The notes under the pieces are model-generated. The model had not been told where the DNA came from, searched no databases, and saw only the letters and a list, made by a program, of their open reading frames with translations. Positions 14,407 through 57,080 of a stretch of DNA of 64,000 bases are shown here, piece by piece. The position numbers and the translations under genes are program-made. Origin of the DNA: Blasia pusilla (Eukaryota); contig CM114271.1 in NCBI GenBank assembly GCA_050084515.1, positions 36,766,001 to 36,830,000 on the forward strand. Direction: 5' to 3'. Every line of letters begins with the position of its first letter. Position 1 is the first letter of the stretch.

Positions 14407-17400
14407 CTATTGTCTTGGACCTATGCCAAGACCCTTCAGATGTCGGTGAAGCTGATCTCCGCTCAAGGCTTTCGTGAAGATGTCTGTACGGTTATCCTCT
14501 GTTGGACAATAGACTAACTTCAAAACCTCTCTCTCGATCAATTCACGGACAAAGTGGTACTGGATCTCTATGTGCTTCGTACGAGCATGAAACACATGAT
14601 TATGTGCTATGGCAATGCAACTCTGATTGTCACACCACATTACAATAGCACTTTCAGGTGCTTCTCCTATGTCCTCCAATATCCATCTCAACCATACTAC
14701 TTCACAAGAAGCATAACAAGCCGCCTTGTACTCTACCTTGGTAGAAGAAAGGGCCACTGTAGGTTGCTTCTTGCTGACCCATGACACCACACCTGATCCT
14801 ACTAAGAAGCAATAACCCGAAATTGATCTTCCAGAATTTGAATCTCCTGCCCAATCCGAGTCACAAAAACCTGTCATTTCCGTCCCTGCTCCATAGGTAA
14901 TGTCGTACTCCATAGTGCCTTTGATGAACTCCAACACACGCATCCCTGCCTTCCAATGGTTCTCACGAGGCTTAGTTGAGAACCTACTCAACACTCCCAC
15001 AGCGAAGCTAATGTCTGGTCTACTGTTACACAAAAATATCAAACTGCCTACAAGCTTTTTGTACAACTTTTCATCTACCAATGGTGAAACATCCTCCATC
15101 GAGAGTTTCAACTCTACCTCCATTGGCGAGACCACTGCCTTACACTCGGTCATCCCGAATGCCTTCAAGATTTCTCTAGCATACTTCTGCTGAGAGAGAA
15201 AAATAGAATCTGACTGTTGCCAAATTTCCAGTCCTATAAAGTAGTGCAAAAGACCTAAATCTGACATTTCAAACTCAGATTTCAACACTCCCTTCATTTC
15301 CTCTATTTTCTTAATGTGGTCTCTTGTGATGATCAGATCATCCACATACAAGACTATCAACATATACATCCCATCTTCGCAAAACACATACAAATTTGCT
15401 TCTGAAGGACTCTTGATGAGACCCTTCTCTCGAAAGAATGTATCTATTCGTTGATACCATACCCTTGGGGCTTGCTTCAACCCATACAATGCTCGATGAA
15501 GTAAACAAACTTTCTCTTCTGATCCGGGCGTCTCAAAACCTGGTGGTTGAGAAACATATACCTCCTCCTTGAGACTCCCGTTCAGAAAAGCAGACTTCAC
15601 ATCCTATTGGTATACAGGCCAACGTCTTGTTCCTGCAACCGCTAGAACAATTCGAATGGTTGTCATCCTTGCAGTGGGAGCAAAAGTCTCATAGTAGTCA
15701 AAACCTTCGATTTGTGAGCATCCTTGTGTGACCAGCCTCGCTTTGAATTTATCCAATGTACCGTCCGACTTGTACTTGGTCTTGTACACCCACTTGGTGC
15801 GTATTATCTTCCTGTCCTTTGGCTTTTCAACCAAAGTCCAAGTTTCATTTCTCTGAATAGCGTCTATCTCCATCTGCATGGCCTCTCTCCATTGAGGATG
15901 AGCCAGGGCCTCATCCAAGCATGATGGCTCTTCCACCTTCAAGACCTCTGTCATCAGGGCCATGTTGACGAGATGTGCGGAAGCTCTATTATGCTCCTCT
16001 AGTCTCTTGGATCTCCTTGGATGTGTAACAACTTCATCAGTTGCTAGTGGATCCTTACCATCCAAGAGCTGCTTTATCCACTTAGGTATGCGACCGTAGT
16101 GGAAGAGCAAGGTTGCTCTTTGTAATCATCACCAAATTCTTCTTCTTGATGATTGGTGTAAACATTTGTGGTGTGCTTTGGTGGGTTATCTCTTCGTTTG
16201 ATGATAATGTGGACGGACCACGATATCCGCCACTTGACGAGGTGTTCTCGAACACCACATCACGACTCACAAGCATCTTCTTTTCCTCGGACACCAAAGG
16301 CGATAAGCTTTAGACTCATCATCTTTGTATCCCATAAAGATGCACTTCCTGCTCTTGGACTCCAGCTTGGTCTGGATGCTTCAGGAATATGTACAAAACA
16401 CTCACTACCAAAAGTCCTGAAATGTTGGGTGATGGTACCTTACCTCAAGTATGATTGATGAGGAGTCATGCCTTGCATTGACTTGGTAGCACTTCTATTT
16501 AGAATGTATACGGCAAGATAATACGACTTCACCCAAAATCCTTCATCAAACCTTTTGCTTTCATCATACATCTTGCCATCTCCACCACTGTACGGTTTCG
16601 ACGCTCAACAACTCCATTTTATTGTGATGTATGTGCCGTGGTTAGCTGTCCCTTGATTCCATGCTCTCCCAAATATTTGTTGAATTCTGTTGATAAGAAT
16701 TCTCCTCCTCGATCGGTGCCAAGCTTTTGTATCTTCTTTCCTGTCTCATTCTCAACCAGCTTGTGCCATACTTTAAATTTTCCAAAAGCACTTGCCTTAT
16801 CACGAAGGAAATACACCCACATCTTCCTACTATAATCGTCGATAACTAAAAAGAAGTAGGAAGAACCACCTAATGCCACTGTTCTCATTTTACCACAGAG
16901 GTCAGCATGTATCAACTCTAGAAGAGCCTTTGCCCTATTGCTGAACTCATGTGGAAATGGTTGTCGGTGTTGCTTGCCCATCATACAAGCTTCACAAGTA
17001 TCCGACACTCCAGAAATTGTTGGTAAATCAGCAACCATGCCAGATTTCTGCATCTGACTTAGTAAAGGAAAGCTTGGATGACCAAATCTTTCATGCCACA
17101 ACTTACTGCTACTAAGATCTGTTCCTACACTTGTCGTGAAAGCATATAACTCGTAGATATTTCCACGTCGTATACCTTCATCCACTACTTTCCCATTGGC
17201 ATCCTCAATGACTGCTCCCGTTTTCTTGAAACGAAATTCTAGGTCACGATCACATAATACTGCCACTGAAATCAAATTTCGCTTCAACTCTGGTACGTAC
17301 AGTACATCAATTAACTTCTTTTCATCTCCTTTTTGTGAGACTAAAGAAATTGTGCCTTTCCCTTCTACAGGGCATTTGCATTATTCCCAACAGTAACAAT

Positions 17401-18430
17401 GATGGGCTCTTGTAGAGGCTGTAAGGAGCTATACCAATCCTTATGATTGGTCATATGCCTAGATGCTCCACTATCGAGCATCCATGCATCTTCACTCTTT
17501 GACTTAGTGGAATATTTTGCCTGTGTGCAAAATCTTCAATTGCTACCCAAACATCTACTTCATGTTCTCCTAGTTCTACAGAATTTCGAGACTCCTTCTT
17601 AGGTCTTAAACAACCGTTCTTCTCATCCTGACTCCTCTTTCTACAATGTTTGATAAGATTAAATTTCCAAGGAAAGCCTTCAAATGATAAAAGCATTTGA
17701 AGGCTTTCCTTGGAAATTTCTTCTTGATATTTGAATTATAATCCTGATTTCTACCTCTCTATACGTTGGCAATAAATGTTGCATCACTTCCCTCTCTTGC
17801 TTTGAAGTGCATCTCGTCTTCTACCAACATTGCACTAAATTGTTCAAAAGTAAGCGGCGTGGGTCTTATTTGAGTATTCAATGCAGTGACCAAACTGTCA
17901 TAGCTTGGAGGCAAAATCCTTATGCATCGACGTGCCAAATCTTCGCTAGACTTTGAAATTCCTACAAAAGCCATATGATCTTGAAGATTCTTGATCCTTG
18001 TCAAAAATTGCTCCGCGCTTTCTCCTTCTGAAATTTTTTCGGACGTAAGCTGATTCTCCAGATTCTGAATCCGAATCTCATTCTCGTTTCATACTGATTC
18101 TTCAGAATGTTCCACGCCTTAGCAGCACTGGTTGTATGCTGAATGAGAGTCTTGACAGAATCAGTTACATTCGTGACAATCGCATATAGAGCATCAGCGT
18201 TTCTGCGTTTCCATGCCAGAAATACAACAGGATCGATATCCCCAGATGAAGATGAACATGCAGAACTCAAAGTAGTTTGTGGATTCGAATCGACCCCTGT
18301 GGCCGTCTCCCAGATCTCAAATGATTCAAGGACAATTCTCATTTTGAACTTCCACAATGTATAGTTAGACCCATCTAACTACCCTTCACCCAACGGAGGA
18401 GGGCGAGTAGGTACTGAAGAAGAAGTAGCC
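14407..18430 (-). pseudogene. Copia gag-pol polyprotein, fragmented by stops and frameshifts
   Basis: ORFs 18001-18357, 17759-18004, 16619-17287, 15604-16110 and 14407-15600 carry successive gag, IN, RT and RNaseH motifs. Confidence 0.93.
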
Positions 18431-18502
18431 ATCTCTCAAGATTTTCTGCAAACACAATAAATCGCAAGATAAAATATTGTAAAACCTATTGCTCTGATAC
18501 CA

Positions 18503-18919
18503 TGTGAGAAAACAGAAAGTGACGAAATCACTTAAATCTTTACACAACTTAGAGATACAAAGTGGCCTAGTTCGTCTGTGCACTCACAGTAGAGCTTCGA
18601 TGCAACCTGAACATGGAGATAACTCGACGTACGAGAATGCGCTACCGTTGTGGCTCCCGACTATTTCACTACTCGAGAAAACTAGGGTTTTTACCTATTT
18701 TTCTTCGTTTCTATTAATAGAAAAATATTGCATCAGGGTGCCCCGCACCCTGATGCAATATAGGGTTAGATAATCCTAGTACCGCTACTCCGTTAACCAC
18801 CTACGTCATATTACTATTACCCTTCGACGTCTAAGTCGGAACCATCAATCTAGGCTTCTCCTCATACAAGGGGCCCGATCAGATTAATGATGCTCAGAGG
18901 AGTAGATTTTGAGAATCCA
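18503..18919 (-). repeat. Copia LTR (5' LTR of element A; outer terminal trinucleotide missing)
   Basis: Adjacent to the PBS. The outer end reads GAGAATCCA-CTTTG instead of GAGAATCCAACA. Confidence 0.9.
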
Positions 18920-18990
18920 CTTTGTATGTCTTTACTCGTCTTGAATGATATGTTTCCTTCTGATTCTACTAACATGGATTTGGACAATCC

Positions 18991-21900
18991 TGTTGGATTC
19001 TCAACATCCACTCCTCTGAGCACCATTGATCTGATCGGCCCCCTTTTTATGAGGAGAAGCCTGGATCGATGGTTCCGACTTAGACGTCGAAGGAGTCATA
19101 GTAATATGACATAGGTGGTTTACGGAGTAGCGTTACTAGGTTTATCTAACCCTATATTGCATCAGGGTGCGGGGCAAAATTTTTCTATTAATAGAAACGA
19201 AGAAAAATAGGTAAAAACCCTAGTTTTCCCGAGTAGTCAAATAGTCGGGAGCCGCAGCGGTAGCGCATTTTCGTATGTCGAGTTATCTCCCAGTTCAGGT
19301 TCCATCGAAGCTCTTCTGTGAGCGCACGGACGGACTATGCCACTTTGTATCTCTAAGTTTTGTAAAGATTTCAGTGATTTTGTCACTTTTTGTTTTCTCA
19401 CATGGTATCAGAGTAGTAGGTTTTCCAGTATTTTGTATCTGGCGATCTAGTGTGTTTGCACAAAATCTTGAGAGATGGCTACTTCTTCGTTAGTTTGTGC
19501 TCGCCCTCCTCCGCTGGGTGAAGGGAAGTTAGATGGGTCTAACTATACGTTGTGGAAGTTCAAAATGAGAACTGTTCTCGAATCATTTGAGATCTGGGAA
19601 ACGGCCACAGGGGTCGATTCAAATCCACAAGCTAGTTTGAGTTCTGCATGTTCATCTTCATCTGGGGATATCGATCCTATTGTATTTTTGGCATGGAGAC
19701 GGAGAAACGCTGATGCTCTATATGTGATTGTCACAAATGTAACTGATTCTATCATGACTCTCATTCAACATACAACCACTACTGCTGAGGCGTGGAACAT
19801 TTTGAAGAATCAGTATGAGACGAGGAATAAGACTCTGATTCAGAATCTGGAGAATCAGCTTATGTCCGAGAAATTTTCAGAAGGAGAAAGCGCGGAGCAA
19901 TTTTTGACAAGGATCAAGAATCTTCAAGATCAGATGGCGTCCGTAGGAATTTCAAAATCTAGCGAAGATTTGGCACGTCGGTGCATAAGGATTTTGCCTC
20001 CAAGATATGATAGTTTGGTCACTGCACTGAATACTCAAATAAGACCCACGCCTCTTACTTTTGAAAAATTTAGTGCAATGTTGATAGAAGAGGAAATGCG
20101 CTTCAAAGCAAGAGAGGGAAGTGATGAAAGCATTTCGCCAACGCATGAGAGGTAGAAATCAGGATTACAGTTCAAATGTCAAGAAGAAATTTCCAAGAAA
20201 AACCTTCAAATGCTTTTATTGTGGTAAGCTAGGTCATCTTATCAAAGATTGTAGAAAGAGGAGTCAGGATGAGAAGAACGGTTGTTTAAGACCTAAGAAG
20301 GAGTCTCAAAAAAAGGAGATGAAAAGAAGTTAACTGATGTACTGTACATACCAGAGTTGAAGCGAAATTTAATTTCAGTAGCAGTATTATGTGATCGTGA
20401 CCTAGAAGTTCGTTTCAAGAAAACTGGAGCAGTCATTGAGGATGCCAATGGGAAAGTAGTGGGTAAAGGTATACGACGTGGTTATATCTACGAGTTGTAT
20501 ACTTTCACGACAAGTGTAGGTACAGATCTTAGTAGCAGTAAGTTGTGGCATAAGAGATTTGGTCACCTAAGCTTTCCCTTACTAAGTCAAATGCAGAAAT
20601 TTGGCATGGTTGTTGATTTACCACAATTTCTGGAGTGTCGGATACATGTAAAGCTTGTATGATGGGCAAGCAACACCGACAACCATTTCCACAAGAGTCC
20701 AGCAATAGAGCAAAGTCTCCTCTAGAGCTGATTCATGCTGACCTCTGTGGTAAAATGAGAACAATGGCATTATTGTTCATGCTGACCTCTGTGGTAAAAT
20801 GAGAACAATGGCATATTGTTCTAGTGGTTGCAGGAACAAGACGTTGGCATGTATACCAATACGATGTGAATTTTGCCTTTCTGAATAGGAGTCTCAAGGA
20901 GGAGATTTATGTATCTCAACCACCAGGTTTTGAGACACCCGGATCTGAAGAGAAAGTGTGTTTACTTCATCGAGCATTGTATGAGTTGAAGCAAGCCCCA
21001 AGGATATGGTATCAACGAATAGATACATTCTTCCGAGAGAAGGGTCTCATCAAGAGTCTTTCAGAAGAAAATTTGTATGTGTTTTGCGAAGATGGGATGT
21101 ATATGTTGACAATCCTATATGTGGATGATCTTATCATCACAAGAGACCACAGTAAGAAAATAGAGGAAATGAAGGTAGTGTTGAAATCTGCGTTTGAAAT
21201 GTCAGATTTAGGTCTTTTGCACTACTTTATAAGGCTGGAGATTTGGCAACAGTCAGATTCTTTTTTCTCTCTCAGAAAAAGTATGCTAGAGAAATCTTGA
21301 AGGCATTCGGGATGACCGAGTGTAAGGAAGTGGTCTCGCCAATGGAGGTAGAGTTGAAACTCTCGATGGAGGATGTTTCACCATTGGTAGATGAAAAGTT
21401 GTACAGAAAGCTTGTAGGCAGTTTGATATTTTTGTGTAACACTAGACCAGACATAAGCTTCGTTGTGGGAGTGTTGAGTAGGTTCTCGACTAAGCCTCGT
21501 GAGAACCATTGGAAGGCAGGGATGCATGTGTTGAAGTACATCAAAGGCAGTATCGAGTACGGCATCACCTATGGAGCAAGGACGAAAATGACAGGTTTTT
21601 GTGACTCGGATTGGGCAGGAGATTCAGATTCTCGAAGATCAGTTTCGGGTTATTGCTTCTTGGTAGAATCAAGTGTGGTGTCATGGGTCAGCAAGAAGCA
21701 ACCTACAGTGGCTCTTTCTTCTACCGAGGCAGAGTACAAGGAGGCTTGTTATGCTTCTTGTGAAGTAGTATGATTGAGATGGATATTGGAGGACATATGA
21801 GAAGCACCAAAAAGTGCTACTGTAATGTGGTGTGACAATCAGATTTGCATTGCCATAGCACATAATCTTGTGTTTCATGCTCGTACGAAGCACATAGAGA

Positions 21901-22485
21901 TCCAGTATCATTTTTTTCGAGAATTGATCGAGAGAGAGGTTTTGAAGTTAGTCTATTGTCCAACAAAGGATAATCGTGTAGACATCTTCACGAAAGCTTT
22001 GAGCGGAGATCAGCTTCACTGACATCTCAAGGGTCTTGGCATAGGTCAAAGATAGTAGTCCACATGAGAGTGGATATTGAGGGGGGTGTTGGATTCTCAA
22101 CATCCTCTCCTCTGAGTACTATTAATCTGATCAGCCCTCTTATATGAGGAGAAGCCTAGATTAATGGTTTCGACTTAGACGTCGAAGGATTCATAGTAAT
22201 ATGACGTAGGTGGTTTACGGAGTAACCGTACTAGGATTATCTAACCCTATATTAATTTCTTTGTTTCTATTAATAGAAATGAAGAAAAATAGGTAAAAAC
22301 CCTAGTTTTCTCGAGTAGTGAAATAGTCGGGAGCCGCAGCGGTAGCGCATTCTGGTATGTCGAGTTATCTTCATGTTCAGGTTTCATCGAAGCTCTTCTG
22401 TGAGCGCACGGACGGACTAGGCCACTTTGTATCTCTACGTTATGTAAATATTTCAGTGATTTCCTTTCATTTCAGTTTTCTCAGA
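18991..22485 (+). mobile_element. Ty1/copia LTR retrotransposon B, same family, internally deleted
   Basis: LTRs at 18991-19402 and 22087-22485. PBS TGGTATCAGAG at 19403-19413 and PPT just before 22087. Contains gag 19475-20155, zinc knuckle CFYCGKLGHLIKDC and RT/RNaseH 20824-22022. The protease region and the integrase core/RT start are deleted. Confidence 0.95.
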
Positions 22486-42225: not shown

Positions 42226-44571
42226 TGTAAAATTTCTTAGAATAGATCGACAAGCTTGTAGTAGATAACCTTGGAGGAAATTTGAGGACAACCTTAGGAC
42301 GTCAATAGTGATATGTTAAGGCCATGGATAACATGAGAGAGCAAGTTTCCCCTTTGTTTGAGCTCATTCGGGAAATATATAGAGCATTTTACTATTTTGG
42401 ATAAGTTATCGTTCTGAGTAGAGTTGACTTGCACTTTGGGAAGTGATCCTTGATCCCCTAAAGTACGTCAAGTTCCAAGGAGGTGATCTACGAGCATAGG
42501 TTACCATGGAGAGAGCTTGGGAGAGTGAAGGGGATATACCCAAGGAGAGAGATCTTTAAAGTTCATTCTCTCTCTTTTGAACCTCTTCGTACGAGATGGT
42601 GGATCCTCCTTGCCTTATGAGGAACCCAAGCCTCTCATTATGAGAGTGGTTTTGGTTTAACGAGATATATATATGCAAATCGTAGAGACATTTGAGAAAT
42701 TCTAATTACAATGAGAGAATAATAGATTGAGAGCTCTACAATACGGGAGCTCACAGGTATCTCCTTGTGTTTGCAAGTTTGAGACCTTTTCCTTTGTTCA
42801 ATGCCTCACAAGAGTGTTCACGGGAGCAGGAGCCATCCATTTGAGTGCTTTGTGTTGCAATTTTTCGGATAGGAAAATGGTGCGCGGAAGCGCTGTCCAA
42901 TTTTTGCTAGGAGTTGAGTATGAGGTTGGTATTCCCCATGTTGATGCTCTCGAGAGCACCTTGTAGCTTCCTTGATTTGGTTGGTACAAGTTGGCGATTT
43001 TTTTCAGAAATACTGCCAAATTTTGCGTAAGAGTGGAGTTCGCGACTCGATAGTCGCTACCATTTCAGATGGAAGGTTGAATGAAGAAAAAAGAGTTAAG
43101 AAAGGCAAAGATCAATAAGTTGTACACATTGTCAAAGAAACCGTGGACAAGTTCAACATTTAAGCACAAAGCTGTGACTATTTTCGTGGGGTTGCCACAG
43201 CCACCGTGTGAGGAAGAAGCAATCTGGAAATTTTTTGGTTAATTCTTTATGTAAGAAGTAGAAAAGTAAAATATTTTTTTTACCCTTGCGCAAAATCAAG
43301 GTCCTCTCCTCCATTTAGCAGTCATATATCGAGAGGAGTTGGCACCGCCCATGGGGAGTTTCTGCGCTTAGTTTTGATGCCTATAGGGATTGTTGCTGCC
43401 ATGGTCGCTGAAACCTACGTGTCTCCAGCCGTCCAACTCCTTCCGGAAAGTGAAGCCCACCAAAAGCGCCTTACCTCTTACATCCGGATTGCGTGGTGAT
43501 ATGATGATCCGTTTTGTCCATCCGCCACTAGCGGTCTGTCTGCTCGCGTCAACTAGTCTTAACGATCTAACCGAGCCCGGCTTGTGGCTCAGTTCAGCGC
43601 CTATGCACGAACCAACCACTGTACGTACCGAGCCATCAACATTTCCATTCATTGCCATCACCATTGCCGTTATTAATTGATGGTCGATGGTTGATTTCTT
43701 GATTTGGACGCTATCGTTCCTTTGCAACCGTTAGTGTTGGTATCGGCCCAGGGTTGACTAGTGATATTAGAGGATAGGTCCACCGATGGGGTCGAGTTAA
43801 GGGCTATAGTCTGAGATGTCTTGTGATTGGTAGCCCCCTCATAATGATCGAGTATCGTGCCATGACGCCCATAGCCAAAACGCGTCGTGTTGCTCGTGGT
43901 TGCATCATACCGTCTCAATCACGAAGCCGTACCATCTCTTGGGAGCAAAGTGTGTATCTCTAATGGCAATGGGGATGTCGTTGAATATCGCATTTCATCA
44001 CTGAGTGTCATGCATTTGTAGCCATTCAGGGCCGCTAGCGCCTCACCATATCACAGTACTTGCACCACACATCGAGGAGGTTTAAGCAAGGTCATCACAA
44101 GAGAGTACGACTTACTGACTTTAGGAACGACCAAGTTGGGGTTGAGGTTTGCATTTGTTGAGGAGGAGTGACACTGACATCGGTTTTCGGTTACTCATTT
44201 TAATCTTTTGTCTTGCACGTAAGAGGGGTTTCTCGATATTGGGTCGTTATTTGGGATATTGAGGTTTATCCAGATGTAGAGAGCATCATTGATGTATGTG
44301 GTTAGGGGACATAGATTTGATGGGGATGTCCAAGGTTGTATATATATTATGTCGATGAGATAATAGGAAAACAGTCAATTTTCTACACCACGCCGCTTAT
44401 TGCCGCACATTACACGTCTCATTGAGAGTGAGTGTTGCTATTTAGATTGAGTGATTGAGAGATTACTTGCAAGATTAAGATTGATTGTGTGAGAGGAGCA
44501 TAAGGATCATCAAGACGTCCTTTCAAGACTTTGAGAGTCGAGGTGGTGTGCTCAAGAGTAGCTCTAAAGCG
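42226..44571 (+). mobile_element. 5' part (long LTR-like region and leader up to gag) of a Ty3/gypsy copy that is interrupted at 44571
   Basis: Begins with TG. Homologous to the reverse complement of 52920-54775. Its end (GTAGCTCTAAAG) matches 2035-2046 just before gag and continues at 54788. Confidence 0.75.
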
Positions 44572-44617
44572 TGTCGTGCGCATACACATCGCTACACAAC
44601 ATACATCGTTGTCATCG

Positions 44618-45123
<506 letters not shown>

Positions 45124-45182
45124 GTCACCTTCTTGTCATCTATGTCACAAACACAACTCGGAATGTAGAACTACCTACTCTA

Positions 45183-45320
45183 TGTACATCTGGGACACAT
45201 CCATTGTCCTTGAGGAACCCTAGTGAGAGGTGGCGTCAAACATACCATATGCCATCCTCTCAAACATCCATCACAGACTACCATAGTGGCTGCACCATGG
45301 GCGGAACCACACAACATACA
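45183..45320 (-). pseudogene. PHD finger at the integrase C-terminus
   Basis: CMLC...CDGC...WHMVC...PPL..VP.G.WMCPRC is a complete C4HC3 PHD pattern. Confidence 0.92.
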
Positions 45321-45419
45321 CCGCAAGCCTGCAAGAACTATTGCTAAGCTCGGATCAACTATATCGTCAATGTTTGAAAGATGACGTGACGCACATGGTC
45401 CTTCCAAACCATACTATCG

Positions 45420-47380
45420 CGTCCCTCCAATAAGATAACACCGGATGGCAAAACCTCACGCACTCTCAAGATGGTGCGTCTTGCAGTCACATCCAACGTC
45501 ATGGAAGCCGTTTGCTGCAAGTAGACCTAGTCTCCCTGATGAAACCTTCGGATAGTAGGTTGATAACCACCTCCCCGAATAGTCGCATACCTCAACATAT
45601 CTTGATGTTGTGCAATCGCCAAGTTCTCAAACACCATGGGCATCACTCTCCGAAACAACTCAGCCCTCTGAGAACATGCTCGCATTCATACATCAAGGTC
45701 ATGAAGGTTCAACACCTCACCAACATCTTGACGAATGGCCGCAGGTAAATCTGGCTTTCGGACATAAAGCAACAAGTACGCTGAGAAAGACGATGTCGTA
45801 TAGTAAAATCACTTAGTGTGTAAATTCCTTCCTCGTTAAGTGTTAGATAGAGTTTTATTGATATTAAGTAAATTAGCTTAGGAAAAGGAAATTCCCATGT
45901 TTAAACCTCTTTTATACGAGCCCAACTTTAGGAAAAGAGGTAATAAATAAAAGATGACTTTTTAAAAGTAAAGTAGTGAGGTTGGTGCTTTAATGAAAAG
46001 AAAAATTAGTCTTGGTTGGTGGCTAGGTTAGTTGGGGTAATTTGGAAAATATGAAGTGGGTAAAAGAGGATATCTTGGAAGAGATAAGAGGAAATCTACT
46101 TGTGTCAAAATGTGATTGGCTAAGCCTTGAGAAAAGCCATGTGGCACAAGATAAGATTAGTTGTATTTCGTACTCTTGTGGATCACTTGTGAGTATATAA
46201 AAAGCAGGGACCTTCAAGGGTTCATCACCTTCTATTCCACATCTTGATTCTCTTGTGTCACTCTTGAGTGTATGGCTTTGGGATTGCCTGCTCTTCCAAT
46301 GAGACTGGATCACCCCTCTTGGGAGAGTAACTTGACCATGGTCTATTCTTCGAGAGGTTTCTAGAGTGTGGTGTGGGTGTGGAGATAAGAGGTTTGTCAT
46401 CTTAGAGGAGTTTAGTCATACTAAAATAGTGAATGTTTTGGCTTGTTACTTTCCCAATGAGAGTGGATTACCCCTCTTAGAAGAATAATTCCGCCAAAAC
46501 CCATCCTAGAGAAGAGTAGAAAATGTCTGTCAAGCATGGATAGGGGTGGAGCATGAGTTATGCCCGAATTTCCTTTCCTCAATCCATACCATATCAAGGA
46601 AGTCTTTGTACATAAGCATTCGTTTACTCGCTATTTAGTTTATCGTTTAGGCGTTCATGAACCAGGTCATTCAATCTCCAACTCCGGTGATCCTTCGTAT
46701 CGTCACATATGGAAGGACATGGGATTGTACTTTGTATGTCCTTATCAAGTGATTCATGGACGTCAATAGGCCTGCTCAAGTAGGGTTTAACACACCGTCT
46801 GCACAACTCGTTCCGCTAGTCCATCCGCCTCAGGATGATCTCGCGAAGTAGTGCAATGGTTGATCAATGCTTAATCACACAAGGCCTGAAACTCCCCTCG
46901 GAACTCTGTAGCCTGGTCTGTCAACACCTCAAGTGGTGCACAGTAATGACTCAACACTCGATCTATGAAGGCATATGCTACTCCCTCACTGGTTTTGTTA
47001 GGCAATGCAACCAACTCTATCCACTTTGAGAAGTGCTCGACCATCACCAACACATAACGACTATAGTGCTTCGTCAAAGGCAAAGGTCTTGTAAAATCCA
47101 AACTTCATGTATAACCTAAACCCATAATCGGAAGTGGATGCAAATCTGGAGTTGGATCATTGAACGATGCTTGGACTAGATCACACACCATGCATCTGGC
47201 ACCAAATTGTTGAACGTTAGTCTGCATGCCTCGCCACCAATACTGAATCTGGAGCAAGTTGTACGTGCGCTTCACTCCAAAATGACCCAACTCTTCGTGG
47301 GCATGACGCACCAAACGTGCTCTTTGCAAAGGATGAGGCACAACACCCACTCTACCATCCTCCCACACACGCAACACATG
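45420..47380 (-). pseudogene. Ty3/gypsy integrase, interrupted by an insertion
   Basis: HAHEELGH...CMVC zinc domain, DFTRPLP, VLTDQATEF and HPEADGLAERVVQTV. The C-terminal part resumes at about 45741. Confidence 0.9.
45745..46792. mobile_element. About 1.05-kb foreign non-coding insertion in the integrase, probably an LTR remnant of another family
   Basis: The integrase reading breaks at 46793 into TGTTAAACCC (on -) and resumes near 45741. The insert is AT-rich with a TATA-like TATATAAAAAG. No TSD found. Confidence 0.6.
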
Positions 47381-47407: not shown

Positions 47408-48965
47408 TCACTGTAGGATCCGATCCCGCTGTCTAGCACCCACTGTGCTTGCAACGTTGCTAGTACGCACGTACTCCAAGACCACTCCATCGTCGTGAAA
47501 ATCTCGGCCACCTGTCGTCTCCTCACCGGCCTCTGGATCTAAGGACTTTCCATCAGACCTCGTCGTCGAAGTCTCAACAATCTGGCTCTCCAAAGCCAAC
47601 AAGCCCAAATAGGCTGACGCATACCATCTTGGCATCAACTCCTCATCACTCTCACCATGCCAACGAGCTCCTGTCGCATCTCGCTCACTTGGGCATGGGT
47701 TACGGCTCAAACCATCTGCATCCGGGTTGAGCATCCCAGGTCTATGCACCACTTGGAAGTCATACTCTTGCAACAAAAGAGCCCACCTCGCAAGCTTCCC
47801 TGTAAGCTTGTTGGACTCCATCAACCACTTAAGTGGCTGATGATCAATAATGATGGTAAAGGGATTGCTAAATAGATAACATCTAAAATGTGCGACAGTC
47901 CACACTGCAGCCAATCACTCACCCTCATACAAGCTTTACTTTGCCTCTGCAACGTTGTTCGAGCGATTAGCGTAAGCCACAACGACCTCTCTACCATCAT
48001 TGTCATGTTGGGTGAGCACGGCTCCAAGCCCCAACATGCTCCAATCGATATGCAACTGGAAAGGACGCCCCCTGATCAGTCTCCTCAATATGGGCGCGGA
48101 TGACAATATATCCTTGAGCATAAAAAATGCTCTCTCTTGCTCATTCCCCCAGTACCACTCTTGATCCACCTTGGTCATCAAGGTTAGCGCCTTCGGAATT
48201 GAACTGGAACCCTTGACGTACCTTCGATAGAAGTTCGCCAATCCCATGAATGCATAAACTTGACTCACATATGTAGGGTGTGGAATGTGTGAAATACCCT
48301 CTACCTTTGTCTATTGCACACCAAGGCCCCCTTGGTATATCATATGACCCAGGTACTCAATCTGTCCATAGAAGAACTTGCACTTGCCTTGATGTAGCTT
48401 GAGCCCATGTAACTACAATCGTCAAAACACCTCTTCTAGTTGTCGCTTATGCTTCTCAACCGTAGCGCTTAACACTATGATGTCATCAATATAACACCTA
48501 GCAAAACCCAGACATGCCAAGATCTTATCCATGACCCTCTGAAACTAATCCGGGGCGTTCTTTAACCTGAATGGTAAGAACCGCAATAGTACAAAAAATC
48601 CTTCCCGTGAGGATCCATGCCCCAAAATCAAAGTCTTCTACCTTTCCTCCAATCTGATAGGCAGCCGATGGTATCCGGCTCGCAAATCCAATGAAGTGAC
48701 GACCTTTGCATGCCCAATTGCATTAAAGATCTCCTCAAGGATGGGCATGGCATACCTATCGGACTTTGTCTGCCGATTGATAGGTCGGTAATCTCCACAC
48801 ATTCGCCTATCCGTCCAGTTGCCATGCACATCCTTCTTGGCGAGCATGACAATGGCAGATGCATACTCTCCATGCGACATCTTCACTAGTCCTACTCCAA
48901 CCAAGTCCTGGATCCTACTTTGAATTAGAGCCCTCTCCATGTCACTTTACCTGTAGGATTGTCGG
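47408..48965 (-). pseudogene. Ty3/gypsy reverse transcriptase and RNase H
   Basis: RMCGDYRPIN, LDLRAGYHRL, CYIDD, FMGLANFYRRYV, GLGAVLTQ, IDHQPLKWL and HRPGMLNPDADGLSR. Confidence 0.95.
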
Positions 48966-49417
48966 AAGATCGGCGTGCCACTCGACAACTCAATGCGGAT
49001 CCTTGGACCCTTCAGCATACCCAAATCATGCATACTAAATGCAAAACAACTCCTATAACTCCTAAGAAACTAGTGTATCCGGCCCCGCTCTCCTTTTGTC
49101 AATTTAGGGCCCATATCAGGCTCCCAAGTCTCCATCGTGACTACATTAGGACTCTCCGGCGCGGGTGTCGGTGGTTCCTATGGTGCAACCCCATCTCGGA
49201 CAAAAGAACTCTCAGCTCCACGTGCAGAACCCGGAACCACACTCGATGTTGTGACTATCATCTCCTAGCGTACCTACAAAACATCCCAAGAAGTCCAAGG
49301 GTGTCTCTCCCGATCATCCCTGGTGTGTTGATCTCCTTGGGTCTCACCCCTAGCCGCTGCCTCAACCGTCTCGGTAGGCATGGGGTAACAACGCAACAGC
49401 TGTGATATGTCGCATCC

Positions 49418-50376
49418 TCAAACAACTACTCCTAAGCTGAAAATCCATGTCAAGCAGTTCAGGTCCATCGCTTGACCCAAGACATGACGTTGTGATGCCT
49501 CTGATAGTGTCGATACTTCCGTCACTCCTGTGGGGAATCCCATCGCTCGCTCTTGCTCGTCGGCGTTGGGCTCCACCAACCTCTGTAATTGGTCATCCCA
49601 AACCAAGCCAGGTCTGACCTCCTTGAATGTATAGGAAGCGGGAAAACTCACCAATGTGGGAAAGGCTGCCCGTGGCCTGCCAATTCACTTGACCACAGTC
49701 AACGACGGTCGATCATCTAGCCTCACTGCTTGTGATCAATGGTCGGGATCCAATATAGATCCACCAACAAATCAGAGGGGCTCTCCACTCTCGCATATGC
49801 CCTATGTAACACCTCGTGTGATACCAAGTCGGTCCACCAAAGACGCGGGCGATGTGCTCGTGAACCCACACTCGCCATATCTAACAACACTGTCGGGCTG
49901 ATCCACGCGCGCACTTGATGTGCACTCGTCACCACACGGGACCTCGAATCGCCCAAAATTGGCACATTCTCCAAAATGTATATTGGAGAACGAGGCTGAT
50001 GCTCTTATAAATGCCGCAAGATCCGCATCATCTCCCAAAATAACCTGGACCGAGTGTCAGCAAACCCGCTACCTCATCCAACACTTGATTGGCCCTGACA
50101 TGCCCAACCAACAATGACCAAGTCTATGGTCTACCCGCTCCAAGTCCTGCACCCCCAACAATGAAATGTCCCTCGGTAGGGAACTCTAGTAACCCTGAAT
50201 GGCCGACACAGACAACAAATCGAGAAACAGAGGCGTAATAGCGCCACATGGTGAAATGAAGCGCGCCTCACAATATCATCAATCTCCACATACAGGTATT
50301 GCTGCACGCGCACTCTAGCGTGCAAAATAACAACTAACCCAATGTTGATCCCTCCAAAGAGATCCAACACCCGAAT
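49418..50376 (-). pseudogene. DNMT3-like C5 cytosine methyltransferase domain within the retrotransposon polyprotein
   Basis: Motif I IRVLDLFGGI, II YLYVEID, IV IDLVIVGWACQG (50092-50127), VI YILENVP, VIII RAHRPRLWWT, IX ERAMGFPTGVT and X RHVLGQAMD, all in canonical order. Contains stops and frameshifts. Confidence 0.92.
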
Positions 50377-50799: not shown

Positions 50800-52700
50800 C
50801 TCCTCCTTGTAATCCTCAGAAAACCCCATCGGATATAACATTGCTCCACCAACCAAGACGTCGTAGGACTCTGCATCAGTCACTGTCGCCTTGGCTCGCA
50901 CCATAGACTCATCTCAAGGATGTCTCGGGCGAATCCTCACCACGACCTCATGTCAGGTGATATACTGTGTGGTACTCGCTGCTCCCAAGGATGTCTGCAT
51001 CCAAAATGGAAAATGCTCCACATCGGGTCTCGTCAAGCCCAATCCTCTCAATAATGCTTTCCCCAACATCAGGGGTTGCACTCCTAAATCCAACAAGACG
51101 CGTTGCGGACTAAAAGCTCTACCTTTGGGACTCACCAACAAGAAGACCTCTCCCTGATTATCCAGCAACACAACACCTGGAGAAACCATGGCACGCTCTA
51201 TCGCGGGTCTAGCGGGCATCTCCGCCATCCTAGCAGCCGCGGCCTGCCATGAATCTGACGTGGACAGCCCGAGCATCCGCTGCAAGGGCAAATCCATCAC
51301 CTCCTCTACAATCACCCATGAACGTGATGCAGGAACTTCAAATCCACGCTCACATAGCATAGCGGCTAGCCAAAAAACCTCGGCGGACGTACCTCCCAAC
51401 GTCATAACATCGGAAGCAGAAAATAAAGGAGCGCGGGACACAATGGTGACCACCCCCAACAACGTGCTCGACACATGCCAGCAATAGGAGTCATCGCACC
51501 CGCTTCTCCCATCGCCCTTTGTGCCTGCACACCAACAACATCACCAACTCTCCAAGAACTCTGATCATGACCCATCGATGGGGTCCTCATTGCCTCAGAC
51601 AACGTGAAAGACTGAGTCTATTTCCTTTTTTCCCCTTGATGTGGATCCAACTCTACGGTTGCTCCACGCATCACAACTGCGGGGGCCTCCATCTGGGCAA
51701 CCCCGCATATCCAACCAAGATCCTCCATATGATGTCGATGCCACGGATCCGGCATCATGTAATCTCAATGCCATAGCGGCAATCTGCTCTTGTAGCTGCT
51801 GTATCTGAGCAGCCATCCCAACCTCGCGCCCGGCGTCTTCCTTGATGCGTCTAGGTGGTGGGACTCTACCTCCTCCACGGGAAGCTCCACTACCCTGTCG
51901 GACAACTCCAGCTCCTCGTCCCCCAACGGGACCACCTGGTGTACGATCTCTAGCCCACGCGGACCAGCTACTCACTCTTGTGCCCTCACTTGTCCTCGAT
52001 CCGGACGTAACTCAGGGTGTAAACTGAAACACTTGACGCGTGTATGACCATACCTCTGAAAATAGTCACACTGATAACCTCTTGGTGCAACACCATCTCC
52101 TCCTCCATGCTAAGGCACACGTCCATAACCCTGACGAGTGCAATCGCATTGATGATGGGCTCCACCACATGACCAACAAGTAATTATAGGCGGCTGCTCC
52201 ATTGCCGCATATGAAGGCACATGTCTTTGTGGCACGGCCTCCCAATATCCTCCCTGAGCTCGCGGTGCCACAATCGACCTATCTCAGAGTCCACGTTGCT
52301 GCATTGGTGGTGGAGACAATCGTTACTGCTCTCGCCCACAACCCATGGTGGCTACTCTCTCCTCCGCCATGTTGCGCTCAATGTTCTTGGCGGTCCTAAA
52401 AACATCTCTCAACGTAGGGGAGTTGTTCATAAGGAGCACCCCCTCCCGCACCCGTGTCCGTAGGGTCCGGTCCAGCATCGCGTACCATGACTGGATAGCC
52501 TAAGCCTCTGTCATCCCCTGAGTGACGTTGATCAACCGACGCAAGCGAGTGTAAGCCTCACACAAACTCTCACCCGGGCGCCTCTAGAAGTCGTGTATGC
52601 TGTGCAACTTCTCCGTCCGTACCCCCTGGTAGATCGCCCTCAACTCAGCAAAGAACTCAACCACGAGGTTGAACCTGGGACGAACCCAATATCTGAAAAT
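50800..52700 (-). pseudogene. Ty3/gypsy gag and aspartic protease, degenerate
   Basis: Manual translation gives TCWSCGGAHHQCDC and QCDYFQRYGHTRVKC (zinc knuckles). RVLLDLGVQPL corresponds to VLLDSGAQPL in the 1389-5240 copy. Confidence 0.85.
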
Positions 52701-52703
52701 CCC

Positions 52704-54775
52704 TGTCACATCTTTTAGGATAGATCGGTGAGATCTAGTAGAGTGCCTTCGTGAGTAGTGGAGGACATGCTCAGTAGGTCAAGGATGACCTACTAAGGCC
52801 CCAGGAAACCTGGGCGAGCACCCCTTCGTTTCGGCCCATTTGGAGCCATATTGAAGAACTTACTATTTTAGGTAAGTATCATTTTGAGTATATGATCAAA
52901 TTTTTATTTTTGGTAGGTGGCCTTTGACCTCCTACATCAAGATAAAAGACCAGAATGGGTAACCTGACAATAATGTCGATGCCGCTCCTCGGCAACTGCA
53001 AATCTTGACCCCAACTCGGTCGTGAAGACAACTCCTCCAATCAGCAAGTCGTACTCCTCTCATACCGACATTGCTCAAACCTCCTTGATGTGCGGTGCTG
53101 GTCCAGCGGTTTGGTGTAGCACTGGAGGCACAAAACGGCTACAAACGGCACGGCACTCGGCGGCATACCCTCCTCAATCAGAAATTCACACGCTCTCCAC
53201 CTTAGTGAAAAATCCGCTCCACGATCAAGACGGTGCGGTGCAGCCATAAGCGGCACGACATGGCAATCGGTGGCGCGTTGCATCTACGAGCGTCACGGCA
53301 CGGTAGTCGATGATCATTGAGCGCCTACCAATCCCAATATAGCAACATGAAATGAAAACTCAAACACCATAACCCGAGGTCACCTTCCATCACTGATTGA
53401 TGACAAAACTACGATGACGGTGACGGCCAAACCAAAGTACGTGGTGGCGGCCCAAGTCAGAGAATCAACGGTGGTCATGGTAGACCCTTCACTCCATAAT
53501 GGCGGCAATGGCAACCAAAGGGTGGACAACAGCTGAACACGGCTCTTAGCAGCACTAGGCGATGGCAGCGGCCGACGGTGCATGGTGGACGATGGACCGT
53601 TGAAGGTGATGCTTGATCGTTGATGGTGATGCTTGACCATTGACGGTGACTGTTGACCAAAGATTGTGATGGTTGACCATTGATGGTGACAATGACGGCG
53701 ACGGCCGCCGCCGGCACGGCGGCTGGTAGGGTTTAAACAATTTAACCCTAAAAATCGCCTAGCAATGGTAGTTTTTCAAGATTGACCATAAATTTTTGCT
53801 CACAACTCCAAGTTGCGCACTATTTTTTGCTAAACGTGCACAGCTTCACGATCTACCATAATGTCAAAAATATTTGGAATTGGACATTCTAGTAGAAACA
53901 GTCAGGGATTGTCCTAAAGCCCAATGTCTCTTTCTCCTACACAAAATTTGGCTGCGCTTCCGCGCTGATTTCTCCCAACAAAAATGTAAAACATGTGAGA
54001 ACACAAATCAGCAAGCTACCCGGTGCTCTAGAGAGCACCGTCATGGGGCAATCCACCCCCATACTCAATCCCTATAAAAAATTGGATAGCGCTTCCGTGC
54101 GCCACTCTTCCACACAAAAAATCGGCAAAGGAAACATCACAAGTAAGCGGCTCTTGCTCGGGTGAGCACTCCCATGAACCTCTGAATAGGAAATACAATC
54201 CCCAACCTTCAAAACCACAGAGTGACCAGCAAGCTCCCCCATAAAGCTCTCTCGCTCACTCATTCTCTTTTTGTAAAATAAGATCCAATTTCTCTCACAA
54301 CACCATAGTTCTCACATGTGTGCACTCTCACATGTCTCTCTCAATGTCAAACCAAACCCACTCTCCTAATGAGAGGCTTGGGTAACACACACAAGGCAAA
54401 CAAGACCATAGCTCCGCCGCCTCATGCCAAAAGGCTCAACAAAGAGAGAATGAGCTCTCAAGCTCTTTCTCCTTGAGGTATACCCCTCCCCTCTCCCAAG
54501 CAAGCTCCATGGTAACCTATGCTCGCAAGTCACCTCCTTGGCTCTTGACCTGATGTAAGAGGTCAAGGAATACTTACCAAAAATAGAAATTTGATCATAT
54601 ACTCAAAATGGTATTTACCTAAAATAGTAGGTTTCTCAATATGGCTCCACATGAGCCGAAGGAGAGCAGCTTTCTCGGGGCCTCAGCAAGTCATCCTTGA
54701 CCTACTGAGCCTATCCACCACTACTCATGAAGGCGCTCTACTAGATCTCACCGATCTATACTAAAAGACGTGACC
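52704..54775. repeat. About 200-bp inverted repeat arms (52704-52918 and 54574-54775) flanking the LTR-like region
   Basis: TGTCACATCTTTTAGGATAGATCGGTGAGATCTAGTAGAG... is the reverse complement of ...CTCTACTAGATCTCACCGATCTATACTAAAAGACGTGACC. Similarity extends through TTTGAGTATATGATCAAATTT. Confidence 0.88.
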
Positions 54776-54787
54776 AGTGAGGTTTCA

Positions 54788-57080
54788 AGGGTCTCCATTT
54801 GAGGGACCGCCTTGATCTCCTTTTGTGTCGTCTTCAAATGAGGGGGAGGGCGTAGAGGAGTTTGTTAGTGCATCACATTGAGTGGTCCTATTGTTTGGGC
54901 ATACAAGATGGAAGACCGGGCTAGAAGACCGCGTAGGTTTTTGGGAGTAGTGGATACCATAGAGTTACACCACTTTAGTGCGGAGTTCAGGTGTTGGTGT
55001 GACTCACAGTGGGCCAAGAATACAACCTTTTCACAACATGGAACATAATGTTGCAACACCTAGAGGGCGCACTCATGGACAATATCAATCAATTTTCCCA
55101 AAGGTACGCACCCGAGATTGAGGCATGGAGATTCCACTATGATCCAAATTACGTGTCATGGACTCAGCCAATTCTAGAGGAGGAGGAGGAGGAGGAGGAG
55201 CTAGGGGAGGCTACTTCCTCTGCCACTAGTGAGGTTCAGGGAGGGGTGAGTCAGACTAGAGCAGTTGCATCATCCAATCAGGTTCGTCCCAGGTTCAACC
55301 CCGTGGTTGAGTTCTTCGTGGAGCTACGGATGAACTACCAAAGGAATGGACTAAGAAGTTGTGGATGCTCCACAACTTCTATAGGCACAAAAGAGAGAGT
55401 TTGCGGAAGACATTTACTCGCCTGCGTTGTCTGATTAGTATCACTTGGGGATGATAGAGGCCCATGTTGCTTTGTTTAGGCATGGTATAGGATGTTGGAA
55501 CAAGTCTTGCAAAAATGGGTGAGGGATGCAATATTCTTATGCGCACCTCACCTATATTGAAGGATGTATTTGAGATGGCATAGTGCATTAAGTGCAACGA
55601 AGTTAAGGATAGTGTAGCAGCCATGAGTCACATGCAAGAGCTGTCACAATTACTTGCATCACCAATGCAACAACGAGGATTTTGGGAGAGGAGTGTAGCA
55701 TTGCAAGCTCAAGGAGGTTATCATGAAAGTTACGTTGGTAAGCCCCATGCATACCCAGACAATTCAGGCAGTGGCGAGGAGCGAGATCCCGAGAGATCGA
55801 CATAGCAGGGATGATCACGAGTGACATCCTTGGACTTCTTGGGATGATTTGGAGGTAGGTCAAGAGATGGCATCCAAATGCATCGAGCATGGTACATAGT
55901 CCCACACACCGAGGAGGGGAGAGTTTAGAGTTTATGATAGGGGAGCAATGGGATTGCGCCATAGCAATCACGGATACCAAGGCCTAGAAGTCCTCCATCA
56001 ATCATGAAGGAGACTTGGGCGATCAACGCCAAATACATCATTTCCTTAGGAGTCAAAGGAATTTTTTTGCATTTAGTATGCATGATTTGGGTTAGCTAAA
56101 GGGTATAGGGATCAGCATTGAGTTGTCTAATGACATGCCGATCTTCCAAAGACCCTACAGAAACAATGATATTGAGAGGGCTCTAATTAAGAGTAGGAGT
56201 TGGGGTGGACTAGTGGAGATGTCCCATTGAGAGTATGCAGTTAGCATTGTCATGCCCGCCAAGAAGGATATGCATGGAAATTGGACGGATGAGCGGATGT
56301 GTGGAAACTACCAACCTATCAATCAGCATACAAAGTTTGATACATATGCTATGCCCACTCATGAGGAGATCTTTGATGTTATTAGGCATGCAAAGATCTT
56401 CAGTTTGTTTGGATCTCTGATCCGGATACCATCAATTGCTTATCAAATTGGAGGACATGCAAAAGATGGAATTTTGGGGCATCGATCCTCACAGAAAGGA
56501 TTTTTTGTACGAATGGCGGTTCTTACCATTTGGGTTAACGAATGCCTCAACAGAGTTTCATAGGGTTATGGATAGGATCTTGGGAGGCCTTGATTTTGCT
56601 AGGTGTTACATTGATGACGTCATAGTTTTAAGCACCCTGTTTGAGGAGCATGAGCGACATCTGGAGGAGATGTTTTGACCATTGAAGTTAAATGGGCAAA
56701 AGCTACATCCAAGAAAGTACAAGTTCTTCTACGACCAATTTGAGTACTTGGATCACACGATATATCCAAGTGGTCTTAGCATTCAGAAGAAAAAGTTAGA
56801 GGATATCTCGTGCATTTCACGCCCTATAGATGTGAGTCGAGTTCGTGCATTCATGGGATTGGAAAACTTCTATCAACTATACGTCAATATATTGTTGATA
56901 TCTAGATTGCAAAGACACTAACCTTGCAAACCAAGGTGGATCACGAGTAGCACTAAGAGGATGAGCTGGATAAATAATTTTAGTTGGTCAAGGACAAGTT
57001 GACGTCCGCATCCATAGTCAGAAGACCTATCAGGGGACATCATTTCTAATTGCATATAGATTGGAGTACGTTGGGGCATC
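54788..57080 (+). mobile_element. Continuation of the 42226 Ty3/gypsy copy: partial gag, internal deletion, RT and start of RNaseH region
   Basis: 54788-55700 is homologous to 2045-2930. ORFs 56252-56921 contain MCGNYQPIN, LPFGLTNA, CYIDD and RAFMGL. No protease or DNMT sequence is present. Confidence 0.88.

Follow-up and report, generated by a model that had tools for sequence, protein, structure and literature searches.

A PHD finger ends the integrase of an abundant DNMT3-carrying Ty3 retrotransposon family in Blasia pusilla

Does a retrotransposon that encodes both a potential chromatin reader and a DNA methyltransferase use the one to direct the other? The question is raised by a 64,000-nucleotide stretch of the Blasia pusilla genome (here, the window), in which a PHD finger closes the pol region of an element on the minus strand. 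The original prediction was that this finger could specifically read histone H3 unmethylated at K4 and steer integration, and possibly the methyltransferase (DNMT), away from H3K4me3 chromatin, as the ADD domain does on animal DNMT3. We followed the finger from the window to its family in the genome and to its relatives across the green lineage.

Results

The PHD Finger and the Copy That Carries It

Translated from the minus strand, positions 45183–45320 give a C4HC3 finger with all eight zinc ligands and a glycine two residues before the histidine. It matches Pfam PF00628 with an E-value of 9.3e-12 and 45.2 bits, above the family cut-off of 24. The finger is the end of pol, directly after the C-terminal domain of the integrase and followed by a stop at 45180–45182, and the predicted intact PHD in the place of the chromodomain on a Ty3 integrase is thus borne out. 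In the window copy, the PHD lies in a 77-aa open frame that is not the frame of the integrase C-terminal domain (a helix and a beta barrel; 45383–45736, minus strand), the break falling near 45380. A finger out of frame throughout the family would have spoken against the prediction; instead, a single ORF joins the zinc finger and core of the integrase to the PHD in copies L031 (584 aa), L032 (449 aa), L033 (417 aa) and L034 (407 aa), and the integrase C-terminal domain shares the PHD frame in 20/20 copies chosen for long frames and in 15/20 chosen by PHD rank alone. An AlphaFold model of the integrase–PHD protein has a mean pLDDT of 81 and matches foamy virus and Ty3 integrases. The eight ligands are invariant across 61 aligned proteins, a set retrieved with a PHD-containing query. 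Six Blasia copies (L092, L094, L099, L104, L105 and L107) have tyrosine for the third cysteine, a possible hotspot of methylation and deamination. About 25 aa before the PHD, the integrase C-terminal domain has a Cys-x-Pro-Cys-His motif, near invariant in the 61 aligned proteins and possibly an extra metal site.

The remaining features of the copy, all on the minus strand, follow from its 5′ end. The terminal repeat A1 (54274–54774; ~514 bp in young copies) precedes the remaining part of a gag-like region (52413–52685), whose upstream part is disrupted by an inverted fragment at ~52703–53154. A putative aspartic protease with a single-lobe motif (50833–51216) has no Pfam match here and matches PF13650 in an intact relative, P0013. 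After it come a broken DNMT3-like C5 cytosine methyltransferase domain (49427–50313), an in-frame amber stop with its 3′ hexamer (49172–49180; one base off UAG-CAR-YYA in this copy), a decayed reverse transcriptase (RT; 48281–48997), a decayed RNase H (47756–48082; PF17917/PF17919), and the integrase zinc finger (PF17921) with the N-terminal part of the catalytic core (PF00665; 46793–47365). The integrase is broken by a 1-kb insertion of another repeat (45793–46792), which has an 82% match in copy L086. Downstream of the PHD, a purine-rich tract at 45000–45009, a putative polypurine tract, lies just before repeat B1 (44572–44998), which is swollen by (TG)n expansion and local duplication; the copy ends here, with A2 and B2 missing. 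Given the PHD frame break, the integrase insertion, the inverted fragment in gag and the 3′ end after the first B, the window copy is dead and truncated.

The surroundings hold other repeats. Within repeat B, ~245 bp of pure (CA)n (44620–44864) have grown from a short TG run; older fragments of the same family (66–77% identity), several of them on the plus strand, lie at 1580–5244, 42319–42979, 44071–44569 and 54779–57077; and two related copia elements (RVT_2, rve and GAG-pre-integrase), inverted to each other and 90–95% alike, lie at 13954–22463.

An Abundant Family with Split Repeats

A search of the 390-Mb Blasia genome with the PHD gave 8,904 candidates, and all 150 that were scored are 85–100% identical to the query, ruling out chance or a lone host gene as the source of the finger. 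In a sample of 20 evenly placed 10-kb pieces (200 kb in total), the family makes up 8% of bases at an identity of at least 80% and 14% at 65% or more. For comparisons among copies, we took 20 with long PHD frames, 20 by PHD rank and 20 by DNMT rank. Most have the domain order gag, protease, DNMT, RT, RNase H, integrase, PHD. The predicted co-occurrence of DNMT and PHD in one element holds: the PHD lies downstream of the DNMT3-like domain, at a distance of 4.0–4.5 kb, in 17/20 copies chosen by DNMT, while two of the others are truncated and one has an insertion pushing the PHD beyond the stretch examined.

The family element is ~10.2 kb long and has the plan A, interior, B-A-B, with A of ~514 bp and B of ~125 bp; this 3′ end rules out an ordinary LTR structure. 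The termini are imperfect inverted ends, and two bases separate B1 from A2 (L031/L071, L053/L080 and 13 other pairs). Twenty copies were tried for target-site duplications, of which three lacked the 5′ repeat and two had an unreadable end; the remaining 15/15, with both ends readable, have a 4-bp duplication identical on both sides. Repeats A1 and A2 are 84–99% alike in 17 copies, and in the same number, judged by eye, the bases after A1 never start with TGG as at a tRNA-type primer site. Copies with 99% identical A repeats (L053, L057 and L031) still show many frameshifts; some of these may be assembly errors, so that intact copies are possible. An insertion in copy L039 (3082–3558, minus strand) may be a fragment of plastid rps2. 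Taken together, the PHD is the usual C-terminal accessory domain of the integrase in a split-repeat, DNMT3-carrying Ty3 family.

A Conserved Amber Stop After the Methyltransferase

The methyltransferase is of the DNMT3 type: for copy L091, the best PDB match is DNMT3A with an E-value of 3e-11, compared with only 3e-4 for DRM2. Its catalytic domain is unrearranged, and the catalytic cysteine is kept in 42/46 copies and the glutamate of the ENV motif in 45/46. DNMT and RT share a reading frame, and yet a stop is fixed between them. A pattern search gave 52 matches in 50/61 sources, one of which was removed as spurious; TAG is present at 49/51 of the resulting DNMT–RT junctions and the context UAG-CAR-YYA at 46/51, and stops at every other position are confined to 26% of copies or fewer. 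In the available text of PMC4132726, UAG-CARYYA defines a readthrough class of plant viruses. From this context, we infer that ORF1 (Gag-protease-DNMT) would be the more abundant product and that readthrough would yield RT-RNaseH-integrase-PHD. The stop sits after the DNMT and not after gag, a position at which protease and DNMT would both be made at Gag levels.

There is a methionine shortly after the stop, and the RT-RNaseH-integrase-PHD part might possibly be made by separate initiation there rather than by readthrough. The family DNMT groups (support 0.966) with 13 database proteins that likewise end after the DNMT, and the nearest RT–integrase relatives of the family start just before RT. 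Either way of expression, readthrough or separate initiation, ties the PHD to the integrase and not to the DNMT. This result gives no support to an ADD-like covalent reader–writer in the family, the conserved stop dividing the DNMT from RT-integrase-PHD.

Relatives Across the Green Lineage

The pairing itself had been thought the notable part of the element, but it is not peculiar to it: among 199 proteins retrieved, a set biased by the queries, 136 carry DNMT and PHD in one chain, and 90 of these have recognisable catalytic Cys and ENx motifs under a strict pattern. The integrase–PHD query gave 253 matches, with PF00628 on all 120 long proteins listed, and the DNMT query gave 99. In 131 proteins, hereafter the algal type, a single ORF places the DNMT directly ahead of the integrase, at a median distance of 163 aa; named members come from Chlamydomonas, Volvox, Pleodorina, Tetrabaena, Haematococcus and Monoraphidium, and in several of these members the DNMT is degenerate. 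The volvocine and related members include six proteins, P0064 (Chlamydomonas reinhardtii), P0032, P0037, P0050, P0055 and P0092, whose DNMT-like segment, lying between RNase H and integrase, is degenerate and lacks the catalytic motifs; P0064 has an acidic PHD. Among the DNMT-before-integrase proteins with a recognised motif IV, 67/87 have Glu-Cys in it instead of Pro-Cys.

In an RT–integrase tree of 142 sequences (midpoint root, no outgroup), the Blasia family falls in a clade of 32 with a support of 0.996, and in this clade the DNMT, when in the chain, precedes RT. Integrase–PHD relatives are found in Marchantia, Calypogeia and Sphagnum; among the 120 of 164 relatives listed, the shorter named ones come from Marchantia polymorpha (79% and 83%), Calypogeia (77%), Sphagnum (66%) and Klebsormidium (53%). 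The last of these, at 53% identity, is the Klebsormidium nitens integrase P0299, whose gene model has no PHD; P0025, a 72% relative of P0299, is sister to the Blasia clade (0.983), and the tree contains no sequence labelled KnitGypsy. The upstream-type DNMTs do not form a single clade in the DNMT tree (midpoint root, no outgroup), so the DNMT may either have moved once or been captured twice.

Residues for Reading Histone H3

In PHD fingers that read H3K4me3, the cage tryptophan stands two residues before the histidine; the available text of PMC5415848 describes this conserved residue. Our survey covered 66 PHD matches (64 copies, two of them split in halves), of which 52 could be parsed with eight ligands and 14 could not. 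The cage position is glycine in 52/52 family copies, and tryptophan occurs there in 0/52 copies and 0/164 relatives, as predicted for this site. Reading of K4me3 is thereby excluded, but reading of unmethylated K4 is not thereby established. The predicted likeness to readers of unmodified H3 is also seen in the closest solved fingers, those of CHD4, PHF12, KDM5A/B PHD1, KAT6A/DPF, PHF21A, ATXR5, BAZ2, AIRE and UHRF1; no entry for ING, BPTF or TAF3 is among the best 60 of 86 PDB matches. Both the missing cage residue and these matches speak for the K4me0-specific reading with which we began.

A comparison with KDM5B PHD1, to which the family PHD aligns without gaps, brings out what has been kept and what has been lost. 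The residues of the H3 A1 pocket, equivalent to L325 (49/52 copies; Val in the window copy), P347 (51/52), G349 (52/52) and W351 (52/52), are retained, as is the aspartate for R2, equivalent to D328 (52/52). In contrast, the equivalent of E321 is Ala, Thr or Val in 52/52 copies, and an acid within four residues before the first cysteine, the site of D308, occurs in only 1/52. According to the accessible text of PMC4225485, D308 contacts K4 as its sensor and E321 contacts T3, and binding by KDM5B PHD1 is reduced ~6-fold by D308A, ~10-fold by E321A and 30-fold by D328A and abolished by W351A or L325A. An acidic wall in the loop that leads into the first strand, described for the BAZ2A-B class in the available text of PMC5415848, is found in 0/52 family copies and 0/10 nearest relatives, compared with 116/131 algal-type members; in a second set of proteins, it is present in 39/48 distant, 15/26 middle and 2/8 close relatives. 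The median charge of the PHD shifts likewise, from −5 in the algal type to +2.5 in the 10 nearest long relatives and +5 in the family (52 copies), and the acids are likewise lost in the closest relatives.

We conclude that the Blasia PHD no longer has the residues with which it would sense H3K4 methylation, and for this family the predicted specific reading of unmethylated K4 finds no support: the acids equivalent to D308 and E321 are gone together with the wall, and the domain is basic. The same missing contacts, together with the stop that parts writer from reader, make the K4me0-specific reading unlikely for Blasia, and they weaken the parallel to ADD. The reading fits the algal-type group better, where the wall is mostly kept and one ORF encodes the DNMT a short way ahead of the integrase.

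The charge shift, and the wall-loss trend repeated in the second protein set, point to another explanation, that the finger of the bryophyte clade was retuned and is now a basic module whose target would be DNA, the surface of the nucleosome or a host protein instead of the H3 tail. PHF12 PHD2, whose loop likewise has few acidic residues, ranks with the best-aligning fingers and has a non-histone scaffold role. The near invariance of the A1 pocket and the R2 aspartate suggests, on the contrary, that the finger still binds an N-terminal peptide, and we regard this explanation as rather doubtful. A basic PHD without two acidic contacts may bind the basic H3 tail poorly, and among human PHD fingers only 31/123 bound H3 in one screen (available text of PMC6979384). 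When the PHD region was modelled in complex with H3(1–36) from the Blasia genome, the prediction scored 0.27 and 0.26 relative to a mark of 0.34 and was counted neither way.

Selection and Transcription

For a measure of selection, we counted codon variants common to many copies separately from singletons. Shared variants are 28 synonymous to 4 nonsynonymous in the integrase core, 22/16 in RT, 26/10 and 17/12 in the DNMT (omega 0.12 and 0.22), and 5/3 in the PHD (omega 0.19, from 8 events only); the DNMT–RT linker has 2/13, and private variants have omega values of 0.46–1.54. The domains of the family are under purifying selection, the count for the PHD being small. The three nonsynonymous changes shared in the PHD (R/H, S/L and R/Q) look like recurrent CpG deamination.

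Two RNA-seq runs, from a species that is possibly not that of the Blasia assembly, each gave ~5,000 strand-biased reads over all of copy L053, the strand that means sense RNA in most stranded libraries being favoured about tenfold or more. Coverage climbs toward the PHD and stops at the end of the element, and two reads per run join the end of B to A with two bases between. Most reads are 90–95% alike to L053 and therefore derive from other copies or from a relative.

Insertion Sites

If the PHD were dispensable or merely structural, integration would be untargeted. Fifteen 5′ flanks compared with 100 random windows, a comparison of low power, are mostly repeat in 6/15 as against 32/100 cases, have a CpG observed/expected ratio of 0.57 as against 0.61 (p 0.56), and show no difference in nesting. 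Copies are dispersed along C1 and C2 of the genome (50 and 44 positions; KS p 0.10 and 0.08). Targeting to heterochromatin or centromeres left no sign in the 15 flanks or in the 50 + 44 positions, data of low power. The lack of a bias toward repeat-rich or CpG-poor DNA counts, with the same low power, against K4me0-specific steering, and the random-looking flanks fit an absence of targeting as well as broad tethering. Untargeted integration is also consistent with the dispersal of copies and with five relatives that have DNMT-RT-RH-INT and carry no PHD. We nevertheless consider a dispensable finger very improbable, with eight ligands invariant in the 61 proteins found by a PHD-containing query and shared PHD variants that are mainly synonymous.

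Discussion

Our preferred reading, in which we place middling confidence, is that the PHD tethers the intasome through the H3 N terminus with little discrimination at K4, while the DNMT would be a separate protein of the particle, probably acting on the element's own DNA. One sense transcript would yield abundant Gag-protease-DNMT, and occasional readthrough at UAG-CAR-YYA a long polyprotein whose cleavage would release RT-RNaseH and integrase-PHD. The PHD would anchor the intasome on nucleosomes, its A1 pocket and R2 aspartate gripping the free H3 N terminus and its positive charge, close to the DNA, aiding the tethering; methylation of K4 would be discriminated weakly or not at all, which would favour broad nucleosomal targets over one chromatin state. 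The finger probably helps to choose the landing place of new copies. The DNMT, the more abundant of the two products, would most likely act on the element's own cDNA or on the new insertion and, unlike DNMT3 with its ADD in animals, would not be steered in cis by the PHD.

The closest known system is KnitGypsy-Dnmt3 of Klebsormidium nitens, for which the available text of PMC5890265 describes a DNMT3-like domain in a Ty3 element with catalytic motifs and purifying selection, and the same DIRS-like split repeats of the plan A, ORFs, B-A-B. The RT-RH-INT domain set and order of that kind of element are present in the Blasia family, and the DNMT, placed there in the ORF of RT, is in Blasia in the same frame as RT and split from it by a stop in a readthrough context. 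As far as that text goes, KnitGypsy-Dnmt3 differs in having its DNMT in the Pol ORF and few copies, whereas the Blasia family has a conserved stop after the DNMT and makes up 8–14% of the sample; a PHD is unmentioned in its text and three supplementary files, Fig. 4c aside. Its DNMT had no activity in yeast, a result that the authors call inconclusive (PMC5890265, available text), and the element appears as 'Gypsy-DNMT3 of streptophytes' in the accessible part of bioRxiv 10.64898/2026.05.21.726589. The Blasia element works as KnitGypsy-Dnmt3 does, with a chromovirus-style reader added, and it likely belongs to the same lineage.

Other elements share one part or the other. According to the available text of PMC9940879, Gypsy-7a_cRei of Chlamydomonas reinhardtii is a Ty3 element whose Gag-Pol has a PHD, proposed to steer insertion, and which is found in intergenic DNA 2.6 times more often than by chance; no DNMT is described there, and we liken it by its description only, P0064 from the same species being the member of the clade. 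Chromoviruses also have a histone-reader domain at the C terminus of a Ty3 integrase (Gao 2008, as cited in the accessible text of PMC6673714), but theirs is a chromodomain, whereas the Blasia pol ends right after the PHD and has none. EpiLTRs combine a reader and a cytosine methyltransferase in one LTR element; as given in the available part of bioRxiv 10.64898/2026.05.21.726589, they differ in having a chromodomain, a DNMT4-related DNMT and an adenine methylase where Blasia has a PHD and a DNMT3-like domain, and no adenine methylase is among the Pfam matches of the Blasia element. Among single domains, the fingers of KDM5B PHD1 and BAZ2A-B share with the Blasia PHD the spacing, the A1 pocket, the R2 aspartate and the lack of a cage tryptophan (PMC4225485 and PMC5415848, available text), but the Blasia finger differs in lacking the K4 aspartate, the T3 glutamate and the acidic wall and in being net basic.

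Phygy of REXdb, a non-chromovirus Ty3 lineage of a bryophyte, resembles the family in its 4-bp duplication and in an interior filled by coding region; its size is 7.7–10.0 kb, compared with ~10.2 kb in Blasia, and no extra domain is given for it in the available text of PMC6317226. The same text gives Phygy a preference for NCGN targets, seen at 1/15 Blasia sites and at one more if deamination is allowed, and a tRNA-Trp primer binding site, which the Blasia family lacks, with no TGG start in 17 copies. Membership in Phygy is ruled out on target site and primer site.

How much of this is new? Three things are already in print separately: a DNMT3 in a Ty3 element, a PHD on a Ty3 polyprotein, and a reader and writer in one LTR element. 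PHD fingers in retrotransposons were reportedly described in 2003 and 2005, and they are termed widespread in the accessible text of PMC6673714. In the literature within reach, which mostly leaves out subscription papers, we found no paper that joins DNMT3 and PHD in this clade or reports the pair in bryophytes, nor one that describes the DNMT in two alternative positions, the amber stop in its readthrough context or the reversed charge of the PHD. Figures aside, 'PHD' is absent from the main text available for PMC5890265, PMC6317226, PMC7466625, PMC6338049 and PMC10508981, and in that of the 2026 preprint (bioRxiv 10.64898/2026.05.21.726589; figures and supplements aside) it occurs only in an acknowledgement; the accessible text of PMC11244446 has nothing further on the Blasia element. 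What our analysis adds most usefully is the breadth of occurrence in the green lineage, the stop in a readthrough context and the shift of the PHD from acidic to basic. A 2019 review described methylase-encoding transposons as absent from 'land plants, such as tracheophytes' (PMC6338049, available text), and why retrotransposons carry methylases is called an open question in the accessible text of PMC5890265.

Marchantia polymorpha and Chlamydomonas are models with chromatin maps. Close relatives of the element in both make the question of methylase carriage testable within this clade, where natural acidic and basic variants of the PHD can be compared. A broader picture, which we consider distinctly unlikely to hold in full, is that of an old Ty3 clade of chlorophytes, charophytes and bryophytes with its own reader–writer kit: the algal-type intasome, its PHD still with the acidic surface of a K4me0 reader, would itself select nucleosomes unmethylated at K4 and then methylate what it has inserted, the bryophyte branch would have put its DNMT before a leaky stop, for production in excess, and rewired the PHD to basic, and the DNMT3 of the element could write part of the host methylome. 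If this is true, the algal-type DNMT3-integrase-PHD would be a transposon's reinvention of ADD-DNMT3, and in Blasia, with a family that makes up 8–14% of the genome sample and has sense transcripts, an element-encoded DNMT3 could shape the methylome of its host.
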